The translations under genes were made by a program, and so were the position numbers. This document shows positions 56,701 to 59,700 of a DNA stretch of 64,000 nucleotides, piece by piece. Numbering within the stretch: position 1 is the first letter of the stretch; every line of letters begins with the position of its first letter. This DNA is from Podarcis gaigeae (taxonomy: Eukaryota), in assembly GCA_964106915.2 (NCBI GenBank), contig OZ066923.1. One strand, 5' to 3'. Below the pieces are notes generated by a model. The model did no database searches and was not told where the DNA came from. It saw nothing but the letters and a program-made list of their open reading frames with translations.

Positions 56701-59700
56701 GTGATTAGCTGCATCCTTTGGATCAGTAACATTAATAAGTTCTAACTTTAGCCACTGGAGAACCTAATTACTGCTCCTCATACACAAAAATATTCAGGTT
56801 AGAGCCACATATGGTCATCACTCCATATGGCACCACTAGCAATAAACTAATTTATACAGTAATTTTAGATAGTTATTTGTATGAATCACTAAAGCAGTAC
56901 CATCCATGTATTTTGTGTTGCTGTGCCTGTGTGATCACACCTTGTTAACAAGATCAGTTATTTTTCCAAGCCCAAGAGGGTCTACTAGCAAAAAAGCAGA
57001 GGGACTGAATGAGACAGACAAGCAGGAATGGCAAAGGGGCAGATAAGATTTATTGGAAGCATTTCTTGCATGGCTCTAGAAGGAATCACACACGACACGA
57101 CACCCGGGGTTTCTCAGTCACCTGGTTCTAGATGAAGAATAGGAAAGTGTTGATAGAAATAGGCTCTCTGAACGTTCTGCATCTCTGCAACAGAGACGTC
57201 AAAGAAAAACCCAAGAAAAGAGATAGTAACAGTGAGAGTCAAAGCAGATAATCCAGAGTGCAAGATACCTAATGGCACTGGAATAAGCAAAGAAATCCTT
57301 AGAGGCAATGTTTGGTTTCATCTCATTACATCCCATATTTGGATGCGGTAGAGTACAAGGAACATCGGTTTGAATGTTATTCTGGAATGCTGCCTGTCCC
57401 TGACAGTTTGACCCTTTTCCAATCTCTCCTCAGTTCAGGAACAGGAGGAGGATAGTATTCAGAGTAAAGCATACACAAGTTTTGGATCACACTGATCACT
57501 GACATTTTAAGGGAGTAGAAAGCCCCTATATATAAAGTGCTTGAAGATATTGGATAAGCACTCTAAGAAAAATATGCAAGAAATCTGGTTACATACCATC
57601 TTTCCACAGTTCAGAAACAAATTTATCAGAGGACTGGTGTAGCAGAGTAGCAATGTTGTCATTAAGGGGATCCATGTTCTTCATCAGCCACTCATCAGCT
57701 TTGTAGTCAACCTAGAGAAGAAATTAATTCATTAATATTAGCTACAAAAGATTAACCTTGCCTCAGTATTGAGTAAAAAGAGGCAAAACTATGATTGCCA
57801 CACTCTTGAAATGGAACATGATTCTAGAAATACTGTACTAAGTGGTGAAGCTTAATTTTAGTTTATTGTATGATTTAACTCAGAGTAGATCACATAAGTC
57901 AATGGGCTTCAAGTCATGACAAACTTAAGTTACTGATTTCAGTGGGTCTATTCCAGCTATGACTTAGTTGGATACCACCAATGTGAATTATCCAGAGCAC
58001 CTCAGAAGTGCTAGTCAACAAGTGCTTAATCTGCCACTGTAAGGAGAAGAACGGAAAGGCTGGATCCGCAACAGTTCATGTGCCTTGCCATTAAATGGAA
58101 AGCTGTAGACCTTTATGGGAGCACACTGCTTCCTTTCCTAATGTGGAACTTGATCACTACATAGCTTTCACTAGCCTAAAACAAACCCTCAAATCAGCAG
58201 GACCTAAATTGTCCACAGTTCAGTAGCACCTCTTTGCTTTTCTTTCTACTACAAATACAAAGGCTTACCTTGCCAGCATAGTGCATAATGCAGAAATCAG
58301 CTTTGTCTTTTAGCTGCTTTGGCTTCTGAAATTTGGGATGAGTGCCTTGCTCCTGCACCACCTTTTCCACAAAGCTTTTATCAGTAGCTTTGGGGAACCA
58401 GCATTCTTCATCCAGTAGGGCCAAGATGCCAGGAGGTCCAGCCTGTGTTAAAAAAAGAAAGCAGGTGGAAATCAGCACTGCTATAAAGATTCATGGTTTT
58501 GAACAAGAAAAGCGCACAAAATGAAATCTATCAATTGCTCTTAGCAAAGCAGCTTTCCAGATTGGCCATAAGCAGTCTCTAAACTATCCCATTTCTTGCT
58601 CCTTTTATATGCTACTTTTGAATTCTACATTTAAATGAGTTTTTGCCAGTTTATTCAAATTAAATTTATTATCTTTTAATTGTAACCTAGTGCCTTCCAC
58701 CACGGAATCCAAGGCTGCTTACATGCTGTTCCCCGGCAGTTTCATACCTAGGAACTAACCACATTCAACTACCTCCGCTGCAGCAAAGTGGTGGCCTCAT
58801 AAGCTCATAGGCCACACTTATGTAGATAAATTCAGCTTCTTAGCATAAATCAAGAGGTTTGTGCATACGGGCCTTAAGCTCACTGCCATAACTGTTCTGT
58901 ACTACCCAGGACACGATGCATGAGTCACTCACCGGTTTTTCTATAAGATCAATGCAGGGCTGCAGATCCAGGCCAAAGTCAATGAAGTTCCATTCTATGC
59001 CCTCACGCTGGTATTCTTCTTGCTCCAGGATGAACATGGTGTGGTTGAAGAGCTGTTGCAGCTTCTCATTCGTGTAGTTAATGCACAGTTGTTCAAATGA
59101 GTTCAGCTAATTCCGGAAAAATAGAACAACACAGGTCTAGGTGAATGATACCCACCAAATGGTTACCTACTAGTATCCCCATTTCTGAACCAACATTCAA
59201 CTACAGTTTCTCCACTGCCTTATTTACTGAGATGAAGAAGGCATCTTGTTAGGTGCTTAGCAGCACTCATTTGAGCATCAATTCTAAACTTGGAGCAGCA
59301 GACATCTGCTCTCCACTTAGCAGCAATCCTGCATGCCAATTCTTACTTTACTGAAAGAAAGAGTATTTGACAGCAAACATTATATTAAGGTTATTTATTT
59401 TGTTCCAAAATCATTTTTAAACACAGTCATTTTGGATTTTCCAGGCATACCAAGACCATAATATTACATCTAACACTGAAAAACTAGGATCGGACCCTAA
59501 GTTTGCTCATGTTGGCTGAAGTGTCCCCTGAGGGAAGTTGCACTCTTAATGCTCCCACCAGTAGATGGGGGAAACGAGATTTGCCAATTCCCATCCCATG
59601 CACCCCCTTTCCCCCCTGGTCTAGAGGGTTGGGGGGACCTCTGGGTACAATAAGATACAGTGCAGGGAGGGGGGTGATCAGCAAAACTGTCTGTTCCTCC

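Follow-up and report, generated by a model that had tools for sequence, protein, structure and literature searches.

The window, that is, the whole 64,000-nucleotide stretch of Podarcis gaigeae DNA analysed here (contig OZ066923.1), carries on its minus strand a portion of MYH9, whose exons were mapped by tblastn, with a lizard myosin-9 model as query, one after another from position 62441 down to 35607. The 5' coding exons are found past the right end of the window, on the adjoining 20 kb of this contig (L011, L012). The features relevant to the exon under study are the following:

35607..62441, minus strand: portion of MYH9 inside the window (tblastn mapping)
57597..57711, minus strand: MYH9 exon 15 (numbering of the published papers), ending in WKD plus one base, donor ATG/GTATGT
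57185..57596, minus strand: upstream intron, 412 nt, with a polypyrimidine tract and AG acceptor
57122..57184, minus strand: MYH9 A2 cassette exon, 63 nt, phase 1-1, flanked by AG and GT, adding 21 residues to actin-binding loop 2
55333..57121, minus strand: downstream intron, 1789 nt
55139..55332, minus strand: MYH9 exon 16, beginning with bases two and three of the VDR valine codon, best PDB match myosin-9

The host gene of the 63-nt exon is MYH9. All 38 residues of exon 15 and 62 of the 64 of exon 16 are identical to human myosin-9 (P0084), and the PDB scores of exon 16 were highest for myosin-9 (126.8 bits), followed by myosin-10 (107.5), myosin-11 (105.6) and myosin-14 (78.1). Three further genes of the MYH9 group are present in the genome; identification of the exon as the B2 exon of MYH10 was ruled out, since its host is MYH9 and MYH10 lies on another contig with a 63-nt exon of its own. 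The acceptor is a pyrimidine-rich tract ending in TTGCAG and the donor side reads GTGACT. Exon 15 leaves a single G at its end (57597) and exon 16 supplies two bases at its start (55332), so that the A2 insert is accommodated in frame between WKD and VDR. A sequence-only reading of this DNA had described the exon correctly in its coordinates, length, strand, pyrimidine-rich acceptor, CAG/GTGACT donor, phase 1-1 and 21-residue translation. Elsewhere in the window, positions 20900-22600, 13 kb beyond the MYH9 stop, are very G+C-rich and CpG-island-like and probably correspond to the promoter of a neighbouring gene; Pfam gave no match for three open stretches of that region, nor for 28 out of 63 long open stretches submitted from positions 1-35500.

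Open stretches with splice-like ends are frequent in this part of the gene: the 2264-nt MYH9 intron 15 holds 73 stop-free, phase-1 AG..GT stretches of 30-150 nt, five of them exactly 63 nt long, from which it could be argued that the segment is one more product of chance. What places it above chance is the occurrence of an identical peptide at the identical junction in predicted protein models, together with the lack of any substitution in the contigs of two relatives (see below). When proteins were searched with the insert plus its short flanks, 209 among 1758 candidates matched, and the best 120 of the 209 were compared; these include 32 full-length matches and all are predicted database models. 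As they were chosen for their likeness to the insert, they give no measure of how many species have the A2 exon. In all of these best 120 of 209 models the insert lies at the WKD/VDR junction, with 21 residues in 115 cases, 22 in two and 25 in three, and in 22 of the 120 the peptide is identical to that of the window at 21/21 positions, namely in the skinks Tiliqua and Lerista, the gecko Sphaerodactylus, three turtles, Crocodylus and 15 bird models. Among the matches listed, identity to the window insert amounts to 20/21 in songbirds and the Tasmanian devil, 19/21 in the pit viper Protobothrops, 14-19/21 in placental mammals (17/21 in human NM IIA2, P0084), 16/21 in gar and 12-17/21 in teleosts; no amphibian or cartilaginous-fish model was found among the best 120 of 209. 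The same peptide in birds, turtles and a crocodile, and 17 of its 21 residues in human, refute the chance origin, whose probability we regard as negligible. The description of the exon as hidden, given in the sequence-only reading, has to be abandoned, because RefSeq/UniRef already includes it in myosin-9 models from lizards, a snake, turtles, a crocodile, birds, mammals and fishes, most of the models listed being named "myosin-9 isoform X1" or similar by automatic annotation.

The comparison also shows where the peptide is constrained. Over 22 distinct 21-residue variants among the best 120 of 209 models, E1, Q3, Q6, R7, A8, Y9, F14 and H18 are unchanged, with F14 and H18 invariant as far as the fishes, which suggests a specific contact rather than mere lengthening of the loop. 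Residues 12-21 are the same in all 33 sauropsid-and-marsupial models of this set except one snake. In the three Carassius myosin-9-like models (P0116-P0118) the insert has 25 residues and extends 12 nt beyond the usual donor; an alternative donor in one fish paralog, or an annotation slip, is possible. Loop 1 carries no insert in 88 of the best 120 of 209 models, and the extensions seen in the others are mostly short and mutually unrelated and look like annotation variants, not a conserved A1 exon.

Sequence and position identify the 63-nt segment as orthologous, in a squamate, to A2, the published MYH9 exon that encodes the insert of NM IIA2, and it is most likely a real, conserved and functional exon. 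A 63-nt insertion in loop 2 was reportedly described already in 2008 by Li, Lalwani and Mhatre ("Alternative splice variants of MYH9"). The effect of A2 on the motor and the splicing of the exon have since been published by Das et al. 2023 (PMC10480317) and Mallick et al. 2026 (PMC13158602), and from the available text of these papers the earlier view of an MYH9 equivalent as much less well characterised is out of date, ATPase, gliding, co-filament, tissue, circadian and minigene data being in print. The exon is therefore already known as MYH9 A2, and what is added here is the reptile ortholog. Human NM IIA2 has an actin-activated ATPase over ten-fold lower than the plain form and does not support gliding, although it still tethers actin and forms co-filaments with the plain form that are slowed; the protein was detected in mouse brain, and hindrance of actin-activated phosphate release by the insert was proposed by the authors (PMC10480317). 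According to published data, A2 mRNA is also present in mouse and human skeletal muscle. The region was aligned in ten species, with the main text, in the part available, naming no chicken, zebrafish, Xenopus or lizard (PMC13158602). A literature search with most subscription journals outside its coverage found no reptile or evolutionary treatment of A2 and no reptile expression or kinetics.

Mouse and human A2 share with the window exon the gene, the intron, the length of 63 nt and the start at position two of a Glu codon. In residues, the window insert agrees with human at 17/21 positions and with mouse at 16/21 (mouse compared by eye). The four that differ from human are at positions 4, 5, 12 and 13, the last being His in sauropsids with the loss of one Arg, meaning that the kinetic effect of the insert in a reptile may differ.

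The likeness to the mammalian exon extends to the splice signals, two of which were located in the window:

57116..57121, minus strand: weak 5' splice site GTGACT (C at +5), the same hexamer as in mouse
57232..57238, minus strand: branch-point-like heptamer CTCTCAC; its start at -54 coincides with that of the branch motif predicted in mouse

The whole donor 9-mer, CAG/GTGACT, is identical in the window and in mouse. In a count of matches to the donor consensus the A2 donor (7/9) is not set apart from other MYH9 donors, and the term weak is taken from the score and mutants in the available text of PMC13158602 rather than from a score computed on the window: the mouse A2 donor has a MaxEnt score of 6.60 against more than 8 for its neighbours, strengthening it raised inclusion about 9- to 11-fold in mouse minigenes, with about 9-fold for its repair to GTGAGT, and the mouse B2 donor is rated strong (8.77). 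In the same minigenes RbFox3 increased A2 inclusion with no UGCAUG nearby (PMC13158602). The RbFox site proposed there, GUGACU, is present in the window; TGCATG is likewise missing from both introns flanking the exon (412 and 1789 nt). CTCTCAC is one base off the mouse branch motif predicted at -54 (PMC13158602, supplement Fig. S2A), mutation of which is reported to have had no visible effect, so that conservation of the motif is in itself no proof of function.

Four of 24 listed sequencing runs, all from relatives, were aligned to positions 55000-57640, a span that holds just the last 44 nt of exon 15. Two of them, X23 and X24, which consist of raw reads from a relative (unspecified tissue, about 12% of each being read), gave five reads each joining exon 15 to exon 16, with 0/10 junction reads including A2 and no depth on the exon; one junction contig from X4 also skips it, while X1 contained no junction of either kind in the exon 15-16 region. 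The exon was thus skipped in 10/10 junction reads of two runs and in the junction contig of a third, and ten reads are too few to exclude 15% inclusion. Because these are runs of relatives, of unspecified tissue and read to about 12%, the absence of inclusion reads weighs little against use of the exon, which, judging from its conservation, is probably still used in this animal.

Constraint at the level of bases was apparent in unspliced contigs from two relatives:

56911..57229, strand not applicable: substitution-free block around the A2 exon

The X1 contig has no substitution over positions 56911-57229 (319 nt, one gap) and the X4 contig none over 57033-57220 (188 nt), compared with 26/997 nt and about 69/1690 nt substituted in other intron pieces (2.6-4.1%). 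The corresponding Poisson probabilities are about 2.5e-4 and 5e-4 to 1e-3, to be read with the region having been picked post hoc and a contig depth of 4-6. The X1 block takes in about 210 nt of the downstream intron (56911-57121), and within that interval there is a GTGTCGTGTCGTGTGTG run 19-35 nt past the donor, plus several TGC words, which we take to be possible CELF or MBNL sites. The window exon also matches the human exon at 56/63 bases (by eye, the human sequence being assembled from two mutagenesis primers in PMC10480317), and two of the seven differences are silent. This extension of constraint into the intron, in one relative, and its reach over bases beyond what the protein asks for would fit a segment kept for an RNA-level reason, such as control over how intron 15 is spliced, and translated in reptiles seldom if at all. 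We consider such an explanation very improbable, for the frame, the length (21 residues in 115 of the best 120 of 209 models) and the eight invariant residues are maintained from fishes to mammals, and constraint on bases is usual for old regulated cassette exons. Moreover, the A2 protein was seen in mouse brain, as cited above.

The relation of A2 to the loop-2 exons of other myosin genes was also addressed. In the paralogous introns, all stop-free AG..GT candidates 21 or more codons long were scored against the MYH9 inserts, and one clear top candidate was obtained in the MYH10 intron and in that of a third non-muscle myosin II gene, here called the C25 gene:

L009:6517-6579 (G000:C2:42569516-42569578), plus strand: MYH10 B2 exon, 63 nt, phase 1-1, donor CAG/GTGAAT
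L008:7437-7505 (G000:C25:18415436-18415504), plus strand: loop-2 exon of the third non-muscle myosin II gene, 69 nt, phase 1-1
L010:8963-9070 (approximate; C26): the same intron of an MYH11-like gene, 108 nt, no cassette
L017:9158-9580 and L018:5170-5544: PAR-bZIP-like exons, some 40 kb downstream of the myosin gene on C25

In MYH10, with 94 candidates, the exon scored 23.1 and the next acceptor -1.6; in the C25 gene, with 62 candidates, the scores were 37.9 and -3.0. The MYH10 exon occupies the same intron position as A2, has the same phase and length, and is identical to it at 41/63 bases and 8/21 residues; both begin with AGAT and end with CCAG, and mammalian B2 loses activity in a similar way. 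For a human B2 peptide the sequence-only reading had put the identity at 11/21. The MYH10 exon is a paralog, whose C-terminal half is unrelated in sequence to that of A2. The claim of a diverged C-terminal half therefore holds in relation to the paralogs, but not as drift among MYH9 orthologs, given the constancy of residues 12-21 described above. The B2 donor of this genome is also off consensus at +5. In the C25 gene, the first 63 nt of the exon end in CCAG and are followed by six bases and a GTATGT donor, and they match A2 at 38/63 bases and 7/21 residues; from this arrangement it looks like a 63-nt exon whose donor was moved by 6 nt. The exon converts the following Val to Met, and the same 23-residue insert occurs in gecko and rattlesnake models of the gene.

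The gene on C26, which we take to be MYH11-like from features of its sequence, yielded no A2-like exon when candidates in its 108-nt intron were scored, which fits either a loss of the exon there or its gain after MYH11 split off. That the C25 gene is MYH14 is probable from elimination, from the character of its tail and from the putative DBP-like gene lying 40 kb downstream; the exons in L017 and L018 are presumably those of a DBP-like PAR-bZIP gene, and Pfam gave no match for L017:9158-9580 or L018:5170-5544. Naming the C25 gene by its best PDB match failed, two exons having myosin-10 first, two myosin-9 and none myosin-14, and its gecko protein is labelled "myosin-10-like" in the database.

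The three exons of this genome, A2, B2 and that of the C25 gene, start with AGAT, have phase 1-1 and share their N-terminal half, and in the simplest reading they would derive from one exon older than the gene duplications. The presence of such exons in the same intron of MYH10 and of the third gene supports an origin before the MYH9/MYH10 duplication, and both this age and the kinship of the NM IIA2-type cassette with MYH10 B2 had been anticipated from the sequence of the window. If the C25 gene were a duplicate of MYH10, the MYH9/MYH10 argument would hold and the reading of a single ancestral exon in all three genes would fall. Two reviews, in their available parts, place A2, B2 and C2 all at loop 2. 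The C2 exon of mammalian MYH14 has the same position but is 99 nt long (33 residues) and makes the motor independent of light-chain phosphorylation, in contrast to the 69 nt of the C25 exon. A broader scenario can tentatively be drawn, to which we give somewhat less than an even chance: a single 63-nt exon of the ancestral vertebrate gene would be the source of the loop-2 cassette in each of the three non-muscle myosin II genes, squamates would keep the old form in all three, and the 99-nt, always-active mammalian C2 would be a later invention; reptile NM IIC2 would then damp the motor as A2 and B2 do, the damping being due to the N-terminal half that they have in common.

For the exon of the window itself, the best explanation, in which we have high confidence, is that of a squamate ortholog of A2 that was skipped in the RNA data analysed and probably enters a small share of the transcripts in nerve tissue, where the product would be a motor-poor myosin IIA with a slowing effect on mixed filaments. 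By analogy with the available mouse data, the weak GTGACT donor would keep the exon out in most cells, and neuronal RbFox proteins would let a minority of transcripts include it. In the resulting protein, the 21 extra, largely aromatic residues of loop 2 would hinder actin-activated phosphate release while the tail would still assemble, so that the isoform may act as a tether and brake within mixed filaments. By comparison with mammals, it is likely that this animal includes the exon in nerve tissue under the control of RbFox proteins, and that the product acts as a brake. It could also be that reptiles include the exon in other tissues (for example muscle or sensory organs) or to another effect (for example tuning of actin affinity). 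Loop-2 inserts do act oppositely in paralogs, with B2 reducing motor activity and C2 freeing the motor from light-chain phosphorylation according to the available parts of the reviews, and the mammalian A2 mRNA of skeletal muscle points the same way. We nevertheless judge it unlikely, as the donor, the branch motif and 17/21 residues are common to the mammalian exon and the closest paralog, B2, behaves like A2 (PMC10480317).

The published work on A2, as far as its available text goes, covers mouse and human, and the reptile ortholog broadens this range modestly. Since the models reach the ray-finned fishes, the motor-poor isoform and its weak donor would be ancient features maintained by selection, and not noise of splicing in mammals. 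Mutation of the eight invariant residues could show a biochemist by what means the insert prevents activation by actin. Of the leads obtained here, the freshest comes from the probable MYH14 gene, whose short A2/B2-like exon would, if the assignment is true, make the timing of the opposite effect of C2 testable.
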